DNA of 20,000 nucleotides from IMG/VR virus record IMGVR_UViG_3300028800_000070; one strand, 5' to 3'. Shown here in pieces: positions 9,243 to 19,728 of the stretch. Positions within the stretch are counted from its first letter, which is position 1; each line of letters opens with the position of its first letter. Position numbers and translations under genes: made by a program. The notes under the pieces are model-generated. The model saw nothing but the letters and a program-made list of their open reading frames with translations, was not told where the DNA came from and did not search any database. This DNA is from an uncultured virus (IMG/VR IMGVR_UViG_3300028800_000070) (taxonomy: Duplodnaviria; Heunggongvirae; Uroviricota; Caudoviricetes).

Positions 9243-10418
9243 TTAAACTCCTGTAAAGTTAATCCATCGTCCTTGTCGTCTTGGTTGGAATGATGTCAAC
9301 TGTCCTGAAATCCAGAATCGTCCAATTGATCCACCTTGGGAAGGCATCATTTGTTCTTCCTGATAGAAGAATCCTGCATAATCAGATGGTCGAAGCGTAA
9401 CTTGACCTTCTTTAACACTTGATTTACCAAGCGTTACAGGTGACAACCATTTAGAATGACTTGCTGGAACTTTTTGATCTCCATAGTAGTTAAGGTAATT
9501 CAAATTCAACATATACCCATATCCTGATGCGATTGCTTTATCTCGAAGAATTGGAATACCTCTCCAATCCATTGTAGAAAATCCATTACCCATGCCGTCT
9601 GCTGTTTGTGCTGTTGGGTATCTGCCTCCAACTGGAAGCGTTTTGTATTCATGTCGAACCGTGGGCAGGTAAAGCGATTCGATTAAATCAAATTGGGAGA
9701 AATCAGTTGCGATAAGTGAAGGTGTTTCATTTGGCCCTGTATCAGAAATTGCTGAGTACAATGTTGCAATCTGTGATAACGATCCAGTACCAGACATGTT
9801 TTGCACTTTACCCTTCATGTTGGTATAGGTTGCGCGACTAACTCCACCGATGTCATCGTACAAGACACCATCATCCGTAAGCTGATTTAAGCCGATGAAA
9901 TTTACCCCACCATTGAAGAATACCCCTGTCAAACCGTACAAAGTTTCGTCCAGTACATCTTGATATTCAAATGCGTCATAGTCAATCGCTTGATTATATT
10001 GCCTGGCAAATGCTTCAGCTAAGATTTTAACTGTAGGCATTGAGAACAAAGCTCGGTTAAATGCCATCTGAATAGTGACGTTTTCTGCTGCTGAGTTTAA
10101 TGGTTCAAGTCCGGTTACTTCTTGAAACTGTGTTCTTCGGATTGCTTTAACTGTTTTTAAGAGTGTGTAGACATTGAAATTCTTAGCGTTGTAGAGGATA
10201 TGTGAGGCAAGTGTAGTTGAATTAAGAATAGCGTCAACGACTGTTGCTTGCGCTTCTGCATAATTAAAGTTTGATACGGTTGTATCATAGGACATTCCGT
10301 CTGGCGTTACATGATAGGTGTGGTCAATACCATTCAGTTTAAGTTCTTGATTACGATTGATTGTTTTATCAAGAAACTTTGGTTGTGATCGTTGTAGTGA
10401 TAAAAGATTATTTAACAT
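9243..10418 (-). CDS. Major capsid protein (HK97 fold expected)
   Basis: About 391 aa, after the scaffold gene. Motifs FIGLNQL, IGGVSRATY, GFSTMDWRGIPILRD and C-terminal QPRRQG. ATG 10418 is preferred over the TTG start at 10433 in the ORF track, which lies inside the leader hairpin. Confidence 0.85.
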   Translation of the reverse strand: MLNNLLSLQRSQPKFLDKTINRNQELKLNGIDHTYHVTPDGMSYDTTVSNFNYAEAQATVVDAILNSTTLASHILYNAKNFNVYTLLKTVKAIRRTQFQEVTGLEPLNSAAENVTIQMAFNRALFSMPTVKILAEAFARQYNQAIDYDAFEYQDVLDETLYGLTGVFFNGGVNFIGLNQLTDDGVLYDDIGGVSRATYTNMKGKVQNMSGTGSLSQIATLYSAISDTGPNETPSLIATDFSQFDLIESLYLPTVRHEYKTLPVGGRYPTAQTADGMGNGFSTMDWRGIPILRDKAIASGYGYMLNLNYLNYYGDQKVPASHSKWLSPVTLGKSSVKEGQVTLRPSDYAGFFYQEEQMMPSQGGSIGRFWISGQLTSFQPRRQGRWINFTGV

Positions 10419-10464
10419 AAAAAAAGCCACCAACCCTTATAGGGATTAGCGGCGTAGTTAGCCA
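10419..10464 (-). promoter_or_regulatory. Conserved leader/attenuator element, copy 1 (upstream of MCP)
   Basis: Minus strand TGGCTAACTAC-GCCGC-TAATCCCTATAAGGGTTG-GTGGC-T7-ATG. The 18-mer at 10447-10464 is identical to 13583-13600. Confidence 0.8.
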
Positions 10465-10482
10465 TTTAATTTAACTGTAATT

Positions 10483-10512
10483 AGTGTAATAGACAAGTAA
10501 GATACTTGTCAA
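10483..10512 (-). promoter_or_regulatory. Sigma70-type promoter (TTGACA-18-TACACT) with an overlapping palindromic operator candidate
   Basis: -35 at 10507-10512 and -10 at 10483-10488; inverted repeat GACAAGTA-N3-TACTTGTC at 10492-10510. Confidence 0.65.
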
Positions 10513-10531
10513 GCATCAGTTTTCACAGAGG

Positions 10532-11206
10532 CTAAAAGCCAAACTTTGCTTTGCGATTTGCCTTTATTTGATCGTATGTATATTCTTCAGTTGGTGCTGG
10601 CGTTGGAGTTGATCCACCCAAAACAGGAGCTCTTGCACCTGCTGGCTGTTTACCATAGAATTTTGTATACGTACGATAGAGGCTTGTTGATTCACCTTTT
10701 TGTTTTAACTGAGCATGAAGCATAATTCCTTCGTTATATGCTTTGAGTCCTGGATCTTTTTGCTCTTCTGCTGTTAATGCTGAGTACTCAGTACCGCTTT
10801 TCAATTTCTCTTTGATAGCTTGATTGATATCAGGAATGATACCGTCTTTGACTGCTTCAGCCCATTGTTGACTGTTGGTAGCCCATTCTGCTTTTTGCTG
10901 CGCTGCTGTTTGTTCAAGCGTTTGTTTAGTTCTGTCTTCAACTTCTTTGTCTCTTTTGGCAAGTGCAGCCTGTACTTTTTCATCAGCGATTCTTTCCGCT
11001 TCTGCTGTTGATCTGGCAACTGATCTGTTTTCTAATTCCTCCCAAGTCTTTGGTGCTTCGTAACCTGACTTGCCACTGATTGATTGAGCAAGGTCTGATT
11101 TCATTTGCTCGATACGTTCATCGGCAATTGCTTGAGCTTTTTCAGTTGCGAGTTTATCAATAGCGGCTGTATCTATTTGCGGTTCAATTACTGTAGGTTC
11201 TGGCAT
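10532..11206 (-). CDS. Capsid scaffolding protein
   Basis: 224 aa, helical and charged, between portal and MCP; C-terminal Pro-rich linker plus a short basic helix. Confidence 0.7.
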   Translation of the reverse strand: MPEPTVIEPQIDTAAIDKLATEKAQAIADERIEQMKSDLAQSISGKSGYEAPKTWEELENRSVARSTAEAERIADEKVQAALAKRDKEVEDRTKQTLEQTAAQQKAEWATNSQQWAEAVKDGIIPDINQAIKEKLKSGTEYSALTAEEQKDPGLKAYNEGIMLHAQLKQKGESTSLYRTYTKFYGKQPAGARAPVLGGSTPTPAPTEEYTYDQIKANRKAKFGF

Positions 11207-11223
11207 AGATTGAATAAATTATA

Positions 11224-11433
11224 TCACATTGGGATTATGGCTTCTACACTATCCCAATCGACATAATAATATTTACCGTTATATACGATTCTCTCATCAT
11301 CTTGCTTGAGCCATGCGCCAGGTACGGTATAAGTTCTACCATCAAATGTCGTCACTTGATAATTATCATCAGGATTGACAGGATCGGTAAATTTCGTTTT
11401 AGCTTCGTTTGTCTTTGCAAATAAACTGAACAT
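11224..11433 (-). CDS. Small hypothetical protein (moron-like, own promoter)
   Basis: 69 aa; TGCTAGAAT 6 nt before the ATG. Confidence 0.6.
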   Translation of the reverse strand: MFSLFAKTNEAKTKFTDPVNPDDNYQVTTFDGRTYTVPGAWLKQDDERIVYNGKYYYVDWDSVEAIIPM

Positions 11434-11456
11434 AATTATATTCTAGCATAACCCTA

Positions 11457-11546
11457 CTATGGACTTGCAATAGGAAAGTAGTGAGGCAAAACTGTAAACC
11501 AGAGGATGAGAAAGATGATAGCTCCGATAGTGACGATCCATTTCAT
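11457..11546 (-). CDS. Small single-pass membrane peptide (29 aa, MKWIVTIGAIIFLILWFTVLPHYFPIASP)
   Basis: Manual translation; one hydrophobic helix, preceded by TGATATAAT (11558-11566). Confidence 0.55.
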   Translation of the reverse strand: MKWIVTIGAIIFLILWFTVLPHYFPIASP

Positions 11547-11568
11547 ATTACTCTACCATTATATCACA

Positions 11569-13557
11569 TTATTGTGGTGCTTGTCCTGGCGGTGGCGCAG
11601 GTGCAAACTGAGTTGTTCGTTGTACTTGATTTGGTAATGGCATATCAGTTGAAACAATACCTGCGCCTGGTGCTGGCGGTTGCCCAGGGTTTGGTGGCAT
11701 ACCTGGTTGTGGTGCTGGTGGTTGATTCTGTGCGCCTGGTTGCGCTCCTGGTTTTGGAGATGCAACACTATCAGGTACTAAATACTGCTGAGCATACATT
11801 TGTGGTGAAGACTGTTGTAAGAACGCTCGATAAGCTCGTTCTTTTGGATTTGACTGATCTGTATCTTCGTAATAGCTAAGCAGATCACCAACACCCATTT
11901 TCATGTTTTGTACAGCCAATTGCTTCCTCATCATTTTATCAACTGCACTTGCTGAAACTTCAACAACCATACCTTGACTGACATAGTTTTGATTGATTGC
12001 GGTGAACACACTCTCACCATCTTTACCAACAATCTGCACCATGTGATCTTTGGTATAGAAGAGTCTAATCATTTGCATTGTCCATCCACCTTGCCACTCT
12101 GCAAACTCGTTAATGGTATTTTCTGCAAGGTCATCTATGAAGCCAAAGTCCTGTTCTCGAAACATCTGAGATTGACCAAGCGTTACGTCACCAGATTGCT
12201 GTACGCCACGAGTTGTGTCATTGAGTCCTAGCATTTCAAAAGCAATGCTTCTGTTCTCTTGTTTTGCGTTGTACAGTCCTTGTGGAGCTTCTGGCATTTG
12301 AGCAACTGCAAACGCCTTATTAACATCCTCTGTGTTCACGACAACTGCCTGTCTAGTATTTCGCCAGTCCAGATTTTTAGCTTCTTCTTTATCAATCGCA
12401 CCGCCATTAATTACTGGTTTGCCTGTACTTCGATCATTCATTTCAATGATCTGTCTACCTGTATCGTTGATGTGATCTTGGAATGTGAGTATCTGTTCAA
12501 TACGGTTTGTCTCATCAATCGGATCACGACCCAAAGATTCATACACCATGAAATAATATGGCTTGCGAGGATTTCTGAAATAGTTGTAATAGATCGTATC
12601 TGCTGGCTGTTGGATAGAATCAAAGTATTGTTTCATTAACTCTGCTTCAGATAGTCCGTTGACCTCCTGCATAGTTGGATCAAAAAGTTGTGGTTTACCT
12701 TCATAATCGAAGTATGGATTACGCATTTTACCTAACACGAGATTGTCATACTTCCACACAACGGCATGAATTTTCTCCCATTTTGATTCCTTGGTATCAG
12801 GATCTTTTGTTTCTTTCCACCAATGAAACCAAACCTCCCAGATTTTGATAGGTGAGGCGAGTCGCTTTTCTTGTGTTTCACCATTTGTTGTATCTAATGG
12901 TTTGTTAAATCCTAATCTTGCGGTCAAAGCATCAGCGGTTTTAGGAAACATCATCATCACTTGTTTCGCTCGAAGCTCTGCGTTTTCAGCTACAAACATC
13001 ATGTCATCAGCATTGTTTGTCTTGCAATTCTGATCCCAGACAATGTTGTTGGGAAAGATATTGATGTACTCATAATCGCCATCGTCGCCTTTTTCTGGAT
13101 TCCAACGAGCTTTGATTACTGCGTAAAAGAATAACTGTTCGTGAACGTGAGCCAAACCTATGAGTTTACGGTTTGCCCGTTTCTTCGCATCAGTGTTTAA
13201 TAGATCAGTTAGCGTATCAGCGGTTGTGATATCGTCACTGCTTTTAACAGTCATGTCAGGCAGTTGTGAGGTTGCGATAGGCTTGATACGCATCACACCT
13301 TCATACACAATGTTCTCAACAAACTTAGGTTGAAATTCTTTGAGTCCATCTTTGCCACCAATTTTGAGTTGATCTCCTATGTAATACTTGAGGTTTTTTT
13401 CTTGCCGTTCATAGAGGTGTTTCTTTTGATAAAACTTTTGTGAGCCTTCAATGAGAGCATCAATTGTGTCGATAAACTCATCATCAGCAAGTTCGAGTTG
13501 CAATGGATCTTGTTCTGAAACGATTGTGTCGTGTAGTGCGATTGCGTCTGTATCCAT
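11569..13557 (-). CDS. Portal protein (podovirus P22-like size) with a Pro/Gln-rich C-terminal tail
   Basis: 662 aa, after TerL. Motifs YYIGDQ, ENIVYEGV, IWEVW and EMLGLNDTTRG...TLGQ are typical of podophage portals. Confidence 0.85.
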   Translation of the reverse strand: MDTDAIALHDTIVSEQDPLQLELADDEFIDTIDALIEGSQKFYQKKHLYERQEKNLKYYIGDQLKIGGKDGLKEFQPKFVENIVYEGVMRIKPIATSQLPDMTVKSSDDITTADTLTDLLNTDAKKRANRKLIGLAHVHEQLFFYAVIKARWNPEKGDDGDYEYINIFPNNIVWDQNCKTNNADDMMFVAENAELRAKQVMMMFPKTADALTARLGFNKPLDTTNGETQEKRLASPIKIWEVWFHWWKETKDPDTKESKWEKIHAVVWKYDNLVLGKMRNPYFDYEGKPQLFDPTMQEVNGLSEAELMKQYFDSIQQPADTIYYNYFRNPRKPYYFMVYESLGRDPIDETNRIEQILTFQDHINDTGRQIIEMNDRSTGKPVINGGAIDKEEAKNLDWRNTRQAVVVNTEDVNKAFAVAQMPEAPQGLYNAKQENRSIAFEMLGLNDTTRGVQQSGDVTLGQSQMFREQDFGFIDDLAENTINEFAEWQGGWTMQMIRLFYTKDHMVQIVGKDGESVFTAINQNYVSQGMVVEVSASAVDKMMRKQLAVQNMKMGVGDLLSYYEDTDQSNPKERAYRAFLQQSSPQMYAQQYLVPDSVASPKPGAQPGAQNQPPAPQPGMPPNPGQPPAPGAGIVSTDMPLPNQVQRTTQFAPAPPPGQAPQ

Positions 13558-13600
13558 AAAAAAGCCGCAACCATTAAACAGGTAGCGGCGTAGTTAGCCA
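13558..13600 (-). promoter_or_regulatory. Conserved leader/attenuator element, copy 2 (upstream of portal)
   Basis: Minus strand TGGCTAACTAC-GCCGC-TACCTGTTTAATGGTT-GCGGC-T6-ATG, preceded by the extended -10 TGCTATACT (13609-13617). Confidence 0.8.
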
Positions 13601-13618
13601 ATAAATAAAGTATAGCAT

Positions 13619-13849
13619 TTACTTAATTAACTGAATAGCATAATACGTTTTGCACTTGGGACACTGTGATTTGATAGGAGCTATTAAATCAGTGGTATCA
13701 ACTGGTGCAGCTTCTTCAACCTTGACAACTCTACCTTTAGTTGCAAACAAACCAAACCTACAATTGACACAAAACACTAATCTTTCATCTTGTGAGGCAA
13801 CTAAAACATAGGTGATACCATTGCTTTTTACGGCTGCACGGTCAAACAT
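13619..13849 (-). CDS. Small zinc-ribbon protein (Com-like regulator candidate)
   Basis: 76 aa with CVNC...LF and CPKCK pairs, a layout reminiscent of Mu Com-family Zn ribbons; own promoter TGATATACT. Confidence 0.6.
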   Translation of the reverse strand: MFDRAAVKSNGITYVLVASQDERLVFCVNCRFGLFATKGRVVKVEEAAPVDTTDLIAPIKSQCPKCKTYYAIQLIK

Positions 13850-16218: not shown

Positions 16219-16791
16219 ATGGTTAAAAATTGTCTCGTTTGCCACAATCCGCTATATACAAAACCTTCGGCAGTTAAAAATGGTAGGGGTAAATATTGTT
16301 CAAGGAAATGTTACGACCTTTATCGAAATAACTCTTACAGTGAACGTTTCTGGAAATGGGTTGATAAAACAGATGGGTGTTGGATATGGAAAGGGGTACG
16401 TCCAGATGAACGCTATGGAGTTTTTAGATATAGAGATGAGAATTGGTATACTCATAGATTTTCATGGTTCTTAACTTATGGATATTTTCCAAAACAATAC
16501 ATTCTACATAAATGTGATAACCCTCCATGTGTACGACCAGATCATCTATTTGAGGGTACGGCTAAAGAGAATACGCAAGATGCTATTAAAAAAGGGCGCG
16601 TTCCTCAAATTGGAAGAAATAATTTTAAAAACTTAATAGCTCCGATGCGAAAATTAACACTGGAACAAGCAAATGAAATAAGAAGAAAATATGAACTCGG
16701 TAAAGTTACAATGAAACAATTAGGTATTTCATATAAAGTACATGAATCAAGTATTCATCTAATTATAAATAATAAAACTTATCGCCGATAA
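16219..16791 (+). CDS. HNH endonuclease (free-standing homing-type) with an N-terminal Zn motif and a C-terminal HTH-like region
   Basis: CLVC...YCSRKC; RFWKWVDKTDGCWIWKG; HRFSW; LHKCDNPPCVRPDHLFEGTAKENTQD; KLTLEQANEIR. Own promoter TGATATAAT at 16199-16207; the only convincing plus-strand gene. Confidence 0.9.
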   Translation: MVKNCLVCHNPLYTKPSAVKNGRGKYCSRKCYDLYRNNSYSERFWKWVDKTDGCWIWKGVRPDERYGVFRYRDENWYTHRFSWFLTYGYFPKQYILHKCDNPPCVRPDHLFEGTAKENTQDAIKKGRVPQIGRNNFKNLIAPMRKLTLEQANEIRRKYELGKVTMKQLGISYKVHESSIHLIINNKTYRR

Positions 16792-17981: not shown

Positions 17982-18317
17982 CTAGGCACGTTTAGCCTCA
18001 GATTCTTGTATCTCCTTTATGGTTTCGCCCATACCGTGATCCCATCTATCGGCATGTTTCTCGCACATTTTAAATCCTGATGTTGATACTCTTGCTACTT
18101 CATAACATCCAGTTATAGAGCAACTCCACCCTGTATCTATTCTTGAAAGTGACAAAGTATAAGCTGGTGATCTAAAAAATTTCTCTTCTGCTGTTTCAGT
18201 TCGATGCTCTACTCTCGGATACGCTTCATACCAAGCTATATGACATTTTTTACAAGATTGTACTTCTGGCTTCCATGCCTCTCCCACCCATTCATGTTTG
18301 CAAGTTTCTTCTTTCAT
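17982..18317 (-). CDS. Cys/His-rich hypothetical protein
   Basis: 111 aa; CKHEW, CKKC and CSITGC...CEKH motifs. Confidence 0.7.
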   Translation of the reverse strand: MKEETCKHEWVGEAWKPEVQSCKKCHIAWYEAYPRVEHRTETAEEKFFRSPAYTLSLSRIDTGWSCSITGCYEVARVSTSGFKMCEKHADRWDHGMGETIKEIQESEAKRA

Positions 18318-18538: not shown

Positions 18539-18781
18539 TTAGGCACGGTTAGCCTTAAATAATTTTAAAATCTCATCGGCATAATATTCATCTTGTTCTT
18601 CAAGTTTTTCTTTATCCTCAAACAAATTCAAATTCTCATTACCTCTATCATTTGCCCTATGCCTAAAGAGAATTTTTATAATTTCTTTTTTCGTTTCCAT
18701 TTTACTTAATGCACACCATGATCTATGCCATGCATTACCAATTCGATCTCCTCCGCAAGTACATCCTTTATCTTTACTCAT
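18539..18781 (-). CDS. Hypothetical protein (CTCGG...HRSWC Zn motif)
   Basis: 80-aa ORF in the array. Confidence 0.65.
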   Translation of the reverse strand: MSKDKGCTCGGDRIGNAWHRSWCALSKMETKKEIIKILFRHRANDRGNENLNLFEDKEKLEEQDEYYADEILKLFKANRA

Positions 18782-19173: not shown

Positions 19174-19728
19174 CTATTTGAAATCTTTAGTCTTTATTTT
19201 CATCATAGTACCGTCTGAACAATGCCAAACGATCCCTTCAATGAAACCATTGCCGTATTTACTCTTTGTCTTTGGCAACCATTCCCGTAAACCCTCAAAG
19301 GTTGTAGGGACATCTTCAAATACAGGAGCTTGACCAAGAGTAAAAAACATTATGATGTTTTTATCAAGTCCTAACGGATTGCCCTGTATATTTGTTCCCA
19401 TTGCTTCACCTGACCATTCACCGTCTTCTATTTCTGATAGATCAGTATTTTTCAAAGCGTCATATATCCATTTATCGGATGGCTCATTTTCAAAAGCGTC
19501 TACATACCAAGGTTCTGATATGCCCTTATGTTTCTGGATCTTGTCAGGATTCCTGCGCTTCTCAAGTCTTACCGCTGTATGATTACGAACAGTGACACGA
19601 ACATTTGTACCGTCTACTTTTTCCGTAGCTGTACCAATCATAAACTTTTCAGGATCAACAACGAGTTTATCTATGACTCCTCGTTTGCCTTCCCAATCTC
19701 TTTCAAATATTGTTGGAATTTTATTCAT
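19174..19728 (-). CDS. RNA ligase-like nucleotidyltransferase (RLIG1/DUF5565-like)
   Basis: Motif I ATEKVDGTN, motif III-like GEAMG...IQGNP, motif IV EGIVWH and motif V MKIK..DF; MNKIPTIF N-terminus; GGGGGTGA upstream. Confidence 0.75.
   Translation of the reverse strand: MNKIPTIFERDWEGKRGVIDKLVVDPEKFMIGTATEKVDGTNVRVTVRNHTAVRLEKRRNPDKIQKHKGISEPWYVDAFENEPSDKWIYDALKNTDLSEIEDGEWSGEAMGTNIQGNPLGLDKNIIMFFTLGQAPVFEDVPTTFEGLREWLPKTKSKYGNGFIEGIVWHCSDGTMMKIKTKDFK

Follow-up and report, generated by a model that had tools for sequence, protein, structure and literature searches.

In bacteriophage lambda, the terminator tR' lies near the late promoter PR', behind the 6S leader, and is overridden by the Q protein. 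Antiterminators of the BglG/SacY/LicT type work through the ribonucleic antiterminator (RAT), an imperfect hairpin of about 29 nt, and RAT systems control sugar operons; ANTAR RNAs comprise two tandem hexaloop hairpins and belong to nitrogen operons. The Com protein of phage Mu unmasks a translation start. According to PMC3351154, Thermus phage P23-45 has promoters of the extended -10 class for its middle and late genes, and its gp39 protein both spares these promoters and antiterminates. Here, we describe a repeated leader element found in a 20,000-nt stretch of DNA (hereafter, the window) from an uncultured virus of the Caudoviricetes (IMG/VR record IMGVR_UViG_3300028800_000070) and in its relatives. 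In the window, the element precedes the portal and the major capsid genes and comprises a promoter-like sequence, a small hairpin (P1), and a terminator-like hairpin (P2) that is followed by a U-run and shares bases with P1. The comparison indicates that these leaders are copies of a family-specific control cassette heading virion (late) operons, and expression of the genes in these operons probably depends on an agent that overrides the stop at P2.

Leaders of the portal and major capsid genes

On the minus strand of the window, the genes follow in the order terminase, zinc-ribbon open reading frame (ORF), portal, scaffold-like gene, major capsid, and tail genes. The portal gene (11569-13557, minus strand; PHROG portal match with E 2.4e-14) is the first behind the upstream cassette, and the major capsid gene (9243-10418, minus strand; PHROG major head protein match with E 1.6e-11) is the first behind the downstream one. 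Both leaders contain the 18-mer TGGCTAACTACGCCGCTA, which occurs exactly at 13583-13600 and 10447-10464, in both cases on the minus (gene) strand. No third site exists in the window even if three mismatches are allowed; the two matches compare with a chance expectation of 0.01, and none of 200 shuffled sequences reached two.

Read on the gene strand, the portal leader opens with the promoter-like extended -10 element TGcTATACT (13609-13617, minus strand, with the -10 hexamer at 13614-13609), located in the 61-nt interval between the zinc-ribbon stop codon and the portal gene. It is followed after 9 nt by GGCTAACTACGCC (13599-13587), a 13-mer that reads GGCUAACUACGCC and recurs identically in the capsid leader, then by a hairpin with the arms GCCGCTACC/GGTTGCGGC (13589-13564; nine pairs and one T-T mismatch), by T6, and by the ATG at 13557. 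Within this leader, P1 is formed by GGC-UAACUAC-GCC (13587-13599, minus strand), whose GCC doubles as the first three bases of the terminator stem; P2 with its U-run (GCCGCUACC/GGUUGCGGC; 13558-13589, minus strand; covariance model E 0.17) ends in U6 (13563-13558), which directly abuts the start codon. The capsid leader has a promoter-like TTGACA-18-TACACT (10512-10483, minus strand) that agrees with the consensus at 10 of 12 positions, then 19 nt, the same 13-mer (10463-10451), an 11-pair hairpin (10453-10426), T7 (10425-10419), and the ATG at 10418, a start favoured over the TTG at 10433 by the alignment with relatives. An identical P1, GGC-UAACUAC-GCC, is read here at 10451-10463 (minus strand), and P2 with its U-run (10419-10453, minus strand; 11 pairs, with U7 abutting the ATG) is picked up both by the terminator scan and by the covariance model (E 0.11).

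P1 and the 4 nt adjoining it are identical in the two copies, while the remainder of P2 has diverged, so that the inner stems differ in sequence and both still pair. Neither leader has an AGGAG-like site between the hairpin and the ATG. The shared design described in an earlier, sequence-only reading of this locus, namely an 18-mer, a hairpin, and T6-7 running into the ATG with no Shine-Dalgarno (SD) site, is thus confirmed at both positions, and folding bears out its statement that the inner stems pair in spite of their different sequences. In the minimum free energy (MFE) folds, the terminator hairpins reach -14.8 kcal/mol (portal) and -17.8 kcal/mol (capsid). The promoter calls rest on conservation in relatives, since a generic scan of the window returned 62 promoter-like sites against 61.4 in shuffled sequence; a TTGACA box with a -10 element is present at the equivalent place before the capsid gene in four related contigs (L078, L079, L080, and L081).

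A cassette family heading virion operons

The exact sequence of the window leaders is of no use as a family marker because, among the 74 loci returned by an IMG/VR search with the 15-mer GGCTAACTACGCCGC, 72 lie in unrelated coding or other contexts, and the only two that share the leader context belong to a near-identical 15-kb contig fragment (G001). Exact GGCUAACUAC is private to the window phage and this one contig, and the relatives use GGAU-N7-AUCC in its place. Relatives were gathered via the portal and capsid proteins, which gave 7 and 15 viral loci together with 18 metagenome loci, with portal identity down to 44%. The common architecture is a -10-like hexamer (usually TGnTATAAT), P1 of the form GGN-loop-NCC, P2, U6-9, and the gene; in the relatives, P1 is AGGAU-N7-AUCC or a shorter GGA...UCC, and the GC-rich P2 hairpin starts at that CC. 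The sequence-only reading had made conservation upstream of head genes in relatives a condition: the architecture is indeed kept far beyond the window phage, and the sequence itself is not.

The final set comprises 35 cassettes in 14 sequences, two to five per genome and all on the coding strand. It was curated by hand from 30 script calls, of which two were dropped (G003_3602 and G005_8790, the latter read afterwards as a second copy of the GGG type), with seven mis-parsed or missed copies added. Run over 241 kb, a covariance model built from these 35 copies scored 38 sites at E<=1, none of them off the gene strand; five are new, and most of the others belong to the training set. All 13 further metagenome contigs carry at least one cassette, with 18 covariance-model matches in total that likewise lie on the gene strand. 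When IMG/VR was scanned with a strict pattern (AGGAT-N7-ATCC...GGTTTTTTT), 34 loci were returned, of which 11 are true cassettes, belonging to this phage family or to two new contigs of the same design; the other 23 lack the hairpin or the promoter, so that, at this stringency, there is no sign of the cassette outside the family in IMG/VR. The sequence-only reading saw in the leader a candidate for an undescribed late-gene control system, and comparison with Rfam produced no family match in the window (0 covariance-model matches at E<=1) or at the cassettes of relatives (three matches in 55 kb, none at a cassette).

The same reading supposed a switch for the pair of head genes. This proved too narrow, as complete relatives with terminal repeats carry four to five cassettes, and the virion operons headed by them include the SU10-type adaptor/nozzle, M23-peptidase, and fibre operons besides portal and capsid. 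In G004, the cassettes precede five units: the portal; the capsid; a 519-aa protein with the SU10-type adaptor and a 1255-aa tail protein; an M23-peptidase block; and a fibre block that contains a 912-aa depolymerase-like fibre. The placement in G003 and G005 is like that in G004. The covariance model detects no cassette in L129 (G003) or L126 (G002), the halves bearing early and replication genes. The window phage has two cassettes. Tandem cassettes stand before the capsid gene in six contigs from at least three lineages (L078 3265-3354; L080 4065-4158; L170 196-283; L171 2266-2363; L174 835-925; and G005, L132 10423-10514), where the second copy keeps its own P1 and has no promoter of its own. 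Architecture, conservation, placement, and the overlap of P1 with P2 are thus read directly from the sequences and their comparison.

Megablast with 5 kb found no match among isolated phages, the capsid protein reaches only 21-27% identity by tblastn (with a TM7 phage and a phage from a spring metagenome), and terminase matches are scattered over many hosts.

The predicted terminator and the overlapping small hairpin

The full P2 is the MFE fold in all 35 copies, with a mean of -11.3 kcal/mol and a range of -8.1 to -17.8 kcal/mol, a stem of 6-11 bp, and U6-9 directly after it in 35/35. A GC-rich stem-loop followed by at least six U, by which an intrinsic terminator is recognised, is present in both window copies and throughout the set; by its fold and U-run, P2 looks like a canonical Rho-independent terminator. 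The stem covaries: five of its seven pairs have changed on both sides, and 82% of the P2 cells pair, a share that drops to 38-41% once the 3' partner is shifted by one column. In 29 of the 35 copies, a TGn -10-like hexamer precedes the terminator, 4-31 nt ahead of P1; hence, the cassette's own transcripts must pass P2. Most of these promoter-like elements are of the extended -10 type with no clear -35 (29/35), and for most copies transcription is predicted to start 0-6 nt ahead of P1. The stop codon of the preceding gene is always 60-110 nt from P2. Distant relatives have 15-35 nt between the U-run and a normal AGGAG site, which argues that its conserved role is not translational.

P1 is a small structure of 10-17 nt with loops of 4-11 nt and three or four pairs, one hairpin per terminator, and its 3' arm coincides with the first two to four bases of P2 in 35/35 curated copies. 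Alignments made by MAFFT and by the covariance model place the GGC-type copies out of register, so that tool-based counts understate the pairing; the P1 pairs were recounted in structural register. Counted in this way, pairs 1 and 2 are G-C in all 35 copies, and pair 3 is formed in all of them (A-U in 30 and C-G in five), the five C-G copies being those of the window and of L078, where the 3' end of P2 is also GGC. A fourth pair forms in 19/32, and a GGG/CCC variant with G-C as the third pair occurs in the second hairpin of G005. P1 travels with the terminator and not with the promoter, as is evident from the fixed overlap, the promoter spacing of 4-31 nt, and the promoter-less tandem copies that keep it. 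At ordinary terminators it is missing: none of the six gene-strand operon-end terminators examined has a P1, among them a strong G004 terminator at 30317 with a promoter behind it in the usual order. The interior of P1 is more alike within genomes (identity 0.77) than between them (0.57), while for P2 the values are 0.63 and 0.54; the gap found for P1 was reached in 0/1000 label shuffles.

In the window, the competing hairpin GGC-UAACUAC-GCC has 3 bp (4 when the U-G pair is counted) and about -2.1 kcal/mol alone, and forcing it in the portal copy costs 5.2 kcal/mol relative to the MFE. The mutually exclusive hairpin of the sequence-only reading is real in the sense that it shares bases with P2 throughout the curated set, yet it is much weaker than the terminators with which it would compete.

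Two more elements of the P1 form, GGCTAA-N4-GCC, lie on the minus strand of the window at 17985-17997 and 18542-18554 (GGCTAAACGTGCC and GGCTAACCGTGCC). Each sits where an early ORF ends, with 13-27 nt to go until the next start codon, and neither is followed by a terminator. The gene strand thus has four such elements against 0.07 expected, and GGCTAA alone occurs 11 times. The two additional copies could be further sites for the same factor or a coding coincidence, as both ORFs end in ...A(K/N)RA.

The zinc-ribbon gene upstream of the portal cassette

Immediately upstream of the portal copy, as noted in the sequence-only reading, is an ORF of 76 aa (13619-13849, minus strand) with the pattern CxxC-N32-CxxC (CxxC...CPKC), which has its own promoter-like element of the leaderless type (TGaTATACT-N6-ATG); its transcript would end at the terminator of the portal cassette. 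The gene sits between terminase and portal in all 11 relatives with that junction on the contig, usually directly before the first cassette, and seven of these 11 have an own -10 element 6-9 nt before its start codon. Among 1.84 billion proteins, 64 representatives reach E<=0.001, which makes the family a narrow one. With the distant single homologue P0030 as the query, one marginal locus was returned.

The AlphaFold2 model is a four-stranded zinc ribbon with a predicted local distance difference test score of 72.6. Foldseek finds nothing for it in the PDB at E<=0.001, a wide VIA search with the model is uninformative (best Z-score 3.7), and the best PDB match by sequence is RNase P component 4 (E 0.043). 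Alignment of the family with Mu Com by hhalign gives a probability of 54.5% over 29 columns that span both zinc knuckles, a value below significance, against 11.8% for P2 Ogr and 0.4% for the P2 DksA-like finger as controls. One of eight members matches Pfam Zn_ribbon_Com (PF10122) with E 0.016, below the cut-off, and the members together give sub-threshold matches to 52 different weak zinc families; a Com cluster of the Atlas yields TM 0.43/0.51, under the tool's bar. The likeness to Com is a lead and not family membership, and the gene is best described as a positional candidate for a trans-acting factor.

A proposed default-off gate and its alternatives

An antitermination switch, as put forward in the sequence-only reading, is the most economical reading because P1 shares two to four bases of the P2 stem in every curated copy; the fold and the U-run of P2 point the same way. 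Specifically, the cassette may be a default-off terminator gate that is opened locally by a trans-acting factor on P1 or on P1 with the adjoining 5' arm, a model we adopt tentatively and with slightly less than even confidence. By default, polymerase arriving from the cassette promoter or from the upstream operon would stop at P2, so that an RNA of 40-60 nt would be the product and the portal, capsid, and tail genes would stay off. Later in infection, the factor would keep P1 closed or bind P1 together with the adjoining 5' arm; with P1 held in this way, P2 would lose the pairs next to the U-run, termination would fail, and the operon would be transcribed. Promoter activity, termination, override, and timing are all predicted from sequence here. 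The override looks local rather than processive because every terminator, even the second tandem copy, has its own P1, and the factor is probably phage-encoded since P1 is more alike within a genome than between genomes. In the window, the read-through mRNA would be translated with no SD site because the U-run abuts the ATG, which fits the many leaderless-type starts of this phage.

Several observations weigh against this model. Pfam (E<=0.01) detects no Q, CAT/PRD, ANTAR, NusG-like, or cold-shock domain in the 56 ORFs of G004 or the 25 ORFs of the window. P1 alone has a mean of -1.3 kcal/mol, and forcing it costs 3.9 kcal/mol on average; being thermodynamically weak, it could not act without a bound factor. 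Only three of its pairs are constant, two of these three are invariant, and compensatory change amounts to one or two events, so that the hairpin is not statistically established; the GG...CC complementarity could come in part from a conserved 5' AGGA motif and a GC-rich terminator base, and the similarity of P1 within a genome may stem from gene conversion. P1 is thus a plausible hairpin, not an established one. Finally, the close complete relative G002 has a single cassette, before the capsid gene, with its portal gene 21 nt after the zinc-ribbon gene, from which it follows that the gate is dispensable at individual operons.

A general RNA polymerase modifier similar to P23-45 gp39, Xp10 p7, or lambdoid Q could open all gates, with P1 being a loading or pause element or simply incidental. 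This agrees with a P1 that is thermodynamically too weak to act by itself and with the prevalence of extended -10 elements lacking a clear -35 among the cassettes, which parallels the late promoter class outlined for P23-45 (PMC3351154), and time-dependent read-through of terminators is documented in other phages (PMC9163698). A processive mechanism, however, needs no element at each terminator, yet all cassettes keep an exactly overlapping P1 that ordinary terminators lack; the variable promoter-P1 spacing argues against a promoter-anchored loading site of the Q type, and Pfam reveals no relative of Q, gp39, or p7, of which gp39 and p7 have no broad families. We consider such a modifier unlikely, if clearly worth keeping in view. 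Much the same weight can be given to a constitutive attenuator or insulator with no dedicated switch, where P2 would end the upstream operon and a fixed fraction of the transcripts begun at a strong cassette promoter would leak through; P2 would then serve as a protective 3' hairpin for the upstream mRNA, the 5' hairpins would stabilise the downstream mRNA, and the U-run would be an unstructured, S1-type ribosome landing site wherever an SD site is missing. The regular position of P2 behind the upstream stop codon, start sites so close to P1 that the RNA would have a structured 5' end, and the window U-run abutting an ATG with no SD site are all in keeping with it, and fixed-ratio termination in a leader is known, e.g., from the greA leader RNA GraL (PMC2836576, as abstracted). 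What makes a constitutive leak hard to reconcile with the data, and so speaks for an override, is that two strong terminators (U6-9, -8 to -18 kcal/mol) stand before the gene of the most abundant virion protein in the six tandem contigs and would starve the phage of the protein it needs most; moreover, the U-run, being remote from AGGAG in distant relatives, is not conserved as a translation element, and neither the restriction of P1 to cassette terminators nor its genome specificity is explained.

The sequence-only reading named the adjacent zinc-ribbon protein as the factor, and a Com-like hairpin binder clamping P1 at all cassettes would indeed be encoded where com lies, directly before the Mu target, at the terminase-portal junction in all 11 relatives; the protein is mildly basic, its family is narrow, and its gene often has an own -10 element; the hhalign score is higher for Com than for the control fingers, and the Pfam and Atlas scores cited above point weakly to Com. 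None of these similarities reaches significance, and they are what any CxxC...CxxC ribbon typically shows; a place in the packaging/head module equally fits a structural or packaging role, and G002 keeps the gene with no cassette before its portal. The co-occurrence that the same reading proposed as a check is uninformative because the gene and the cassette are both whole-family traits. The link thus comes down to position and a weak resemblance to Com, and we think it improbable that this protein is the factor. The antisense RNA offered as an alternative to it has no partner site in the window. The short terminated RNAs might themselves be the product, as tiny small RNA (sRNA) genes with a single-stranded 5' AGGAU... 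seed acting on host or phage targets or soaking up an RNA-binding protein: a promoter with a terminator 40-60 nt downstream is a minimal sRNA architecture, the 5' part is conserved within a genome, and early-terminated RNAs from late promoters can be functional, as reported in outline for an sRNA of Stx phage (PMC7547250). However, the 5' segment varies among related phages (GGCUAA... or AGGAU-N7-AUCC), the window shows no site complementary to it, the second copy of a tandem pair lacks a promoter, and the position right before virion genes, needless for an independent sRNA gene, is kept in every contig; there is thus very little to recommend this option. Least credible of all, and close to negligible, is that P1 works as DNA, the GGAT-N7-ATCC inverted repeat being an operator to which a dimeric protein binds just past the start site. 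In most copies, P1 forms a short palindrome near the -10 element, and G004 encodes a helix-turn-helix (HTH) protein of the Mor family; against this, the distance to the promoter varies, promoter-less tandem copies keep P1, the distance to the terminator is constant, the arms are not conserved in length past 3 bp, and several arms pair via G-U only (the G003 copies and the outer U-G of the window), which is meaningless in duplex DNA.

Three further candidates were discarded. Start-codon occlusion, suggested in the sequence-only reading, is ruled out because the ATG lies 6-7 U past the hairpin and is unpaired in the MFE folds, and it has no counterpart in distant relatives, given the 15-35 nt there between U-run and AGGAG. 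RNase III requires a longer stem, and the 6-11 bp of P2 rule out a site for this enzyme. AGGA as a split SD or a CsrA site was dropped since the GGCUAA of the window and L078 contains no GGA and the AGGAU relatives also have AGGAG by the ATG.

What the gate would mean

If the locally opened gate is real, a family of roughly 39-kb uncultured podophage-like viruses (with an SU10-type adaptor) would have an unusual means of timing the expression of its virion genes, with no late sigma factor or activator and instead with two to five gates of identical logic, 40-50 nt each, every one with its own minimal antiterminator hairpin. The cassette is small, modular, and portable, as it consists of a promoter, a recognition hairpin of 13-15 nt, and a terminator. 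It would be a testable model of how a hairpin of 3-4 bp with its factor defeats a strong terminator, and a candidate for an orthogonal switch in synthetic biology. With 35 curated copies and 18 further matches, it is a populated example of a promoter-then-terminator leader before capsid genes, and its main interest is that of a compact, repeated, and experimentally tractable switch.

A more specific version has the Com-like zinc ribbon as a sequence-specific clamp on the RNA hairpin that antiterminates each virion-operon terminator, maybe also touching the two early GGCUAA-N4-GCC hairpins. This version is improbable; if true, it would mean that the fold of a Com-type translational activator has been re-used as a multi-site antiterminator co-evolving with its hairpin, and such a compact late-gene switch is not known from phages.

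Other features of the window and of its relatives

The Mor-family HTH protein of G004 (61 aa; early region, L130 19182-19364; Pfam Mor, 31.5 bits, above the cut-off) might activate late or middle genes; none of the window ORFs was recognised as a counterpart. The early region of the same genome contains a tRNA gene (L130 13957-14029; Rfam tRNA, 70.6 bits), which might help in assigning the host.

In the other late genes of the window, the -10 hexamer stands 6-7 nt ahead of the ATG, an arrangement of the leaderless type. Such -10-like hexamers (often TGnTATAAT or TATACT) are found at the minus-strand starts 13849, 7816, 7191, 6627, 4811, 4305, 15722, and 17224, and this spacing suggests leaderless mRNAs and a host that translates them. 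The early genes use GAGGCTA(A/G), in which an SD sequence is merged with the stop codon of the preceding gene. A tiny hydrophobic ORF of about 29 aa (MKWIVTIGAIIFLILWF...; 11457-11546, minus strand) directly follows the portal gene and has its own TGTGATATAAT element 12 nt upstream. In the early region, a 184-aa ORF (19174-19728, minus strand) matches the RNA-ligase family RLIG1 (E 2.8e-12). HNH/homing-endonuclease-like ORFs occupy varying sites around the terminase-portal region in different relatives: 16219-16791 on the opposite (plus) strand in the window, 68-709 in L080, 4026-4604 on the gene strand in G005, and about 2272-2440 in L083.

Comparison with known systems

Among listings and abstracts of the literature on phage late genes, antitermination, leader hairpins, and promoter-proximal terminators, no paper describing the cassette came up. 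The closest described arrangement is that of the lambdoid phages. Like PR', 6S, tR', and Q, the cassette places a nearby intrinsic terminator behind a promoter-like element ahead of the late genes, would give a short default RNA, and would need an override; a candidate regulator gene also lies directly upstream of the first cassette, as Q does before PR'. In the lambdoid system, however, there is one late promoter, and its Q-binding element is fixed and combined with a sigma-dependent pause site within the first ~25 nt, whereas here there are two to five cassettes with a promoter spacing of 4-31 nt, each terminator has its own overlapping small hairpin, and no Q family is detected by Pfam (E<=0.01), a search that leaves room for distant Q-like folds.

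In the RAT systems with BglG/SacY/LicT and in ANTAR systems, just as proposed for P1, a weak hairpin that shares bases with the 5' bottom of the terminator and needs a bound protein acts locally. The overlap of the small hairpin with the 5' arm of the terminator, the mark of the RAT type, is seen in 35/35 copies. P1 differs from RAT in its size (10-17 nt, 3-4 pairs), in the lack of a CAT_RBD/PRD match, and in its setting in phage late operons; it differs from ANTAR RNA in having one hairpin per terminator, with loops of 4-11 nt, and no ANTAR-domain match. The resemblance to Mu Com and mom is of another sort: the gene of a small Cys4 zinc protein lies directly before an RNA hairpin, the target of Com and a putative target of the zinc ribbon, and the protein changes (Com) or might change (zinc ribbon) the neighbouring RNA structure. 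Here, though, the hairpin does not include the ATG, the element is a predicted terminator, and each genome would offer several targets; the zinc-ribbon family is also extended at its N-terminus and has 15 extra residues between the knuckles, its homology to Com not being established. With P23-45 gp39 and Xp10 p7, as they are outlined in PMC3351154, the shared features are late or middle promoters of the extended -10 type and a small phage protein overriding intrinsic terminators, the latter being a prediction for the present family; gp39 needs no RNA element, unlike the cassettes with a conserved hairpin at each gated terminator, and no sequence relative of it was identified. Although the defining parts of either parent system are absent, the predicted logic of the cassette is that of the lambdoid PR'-tR'/Q arrangement crossed with the hairpin-competition antiterminators.

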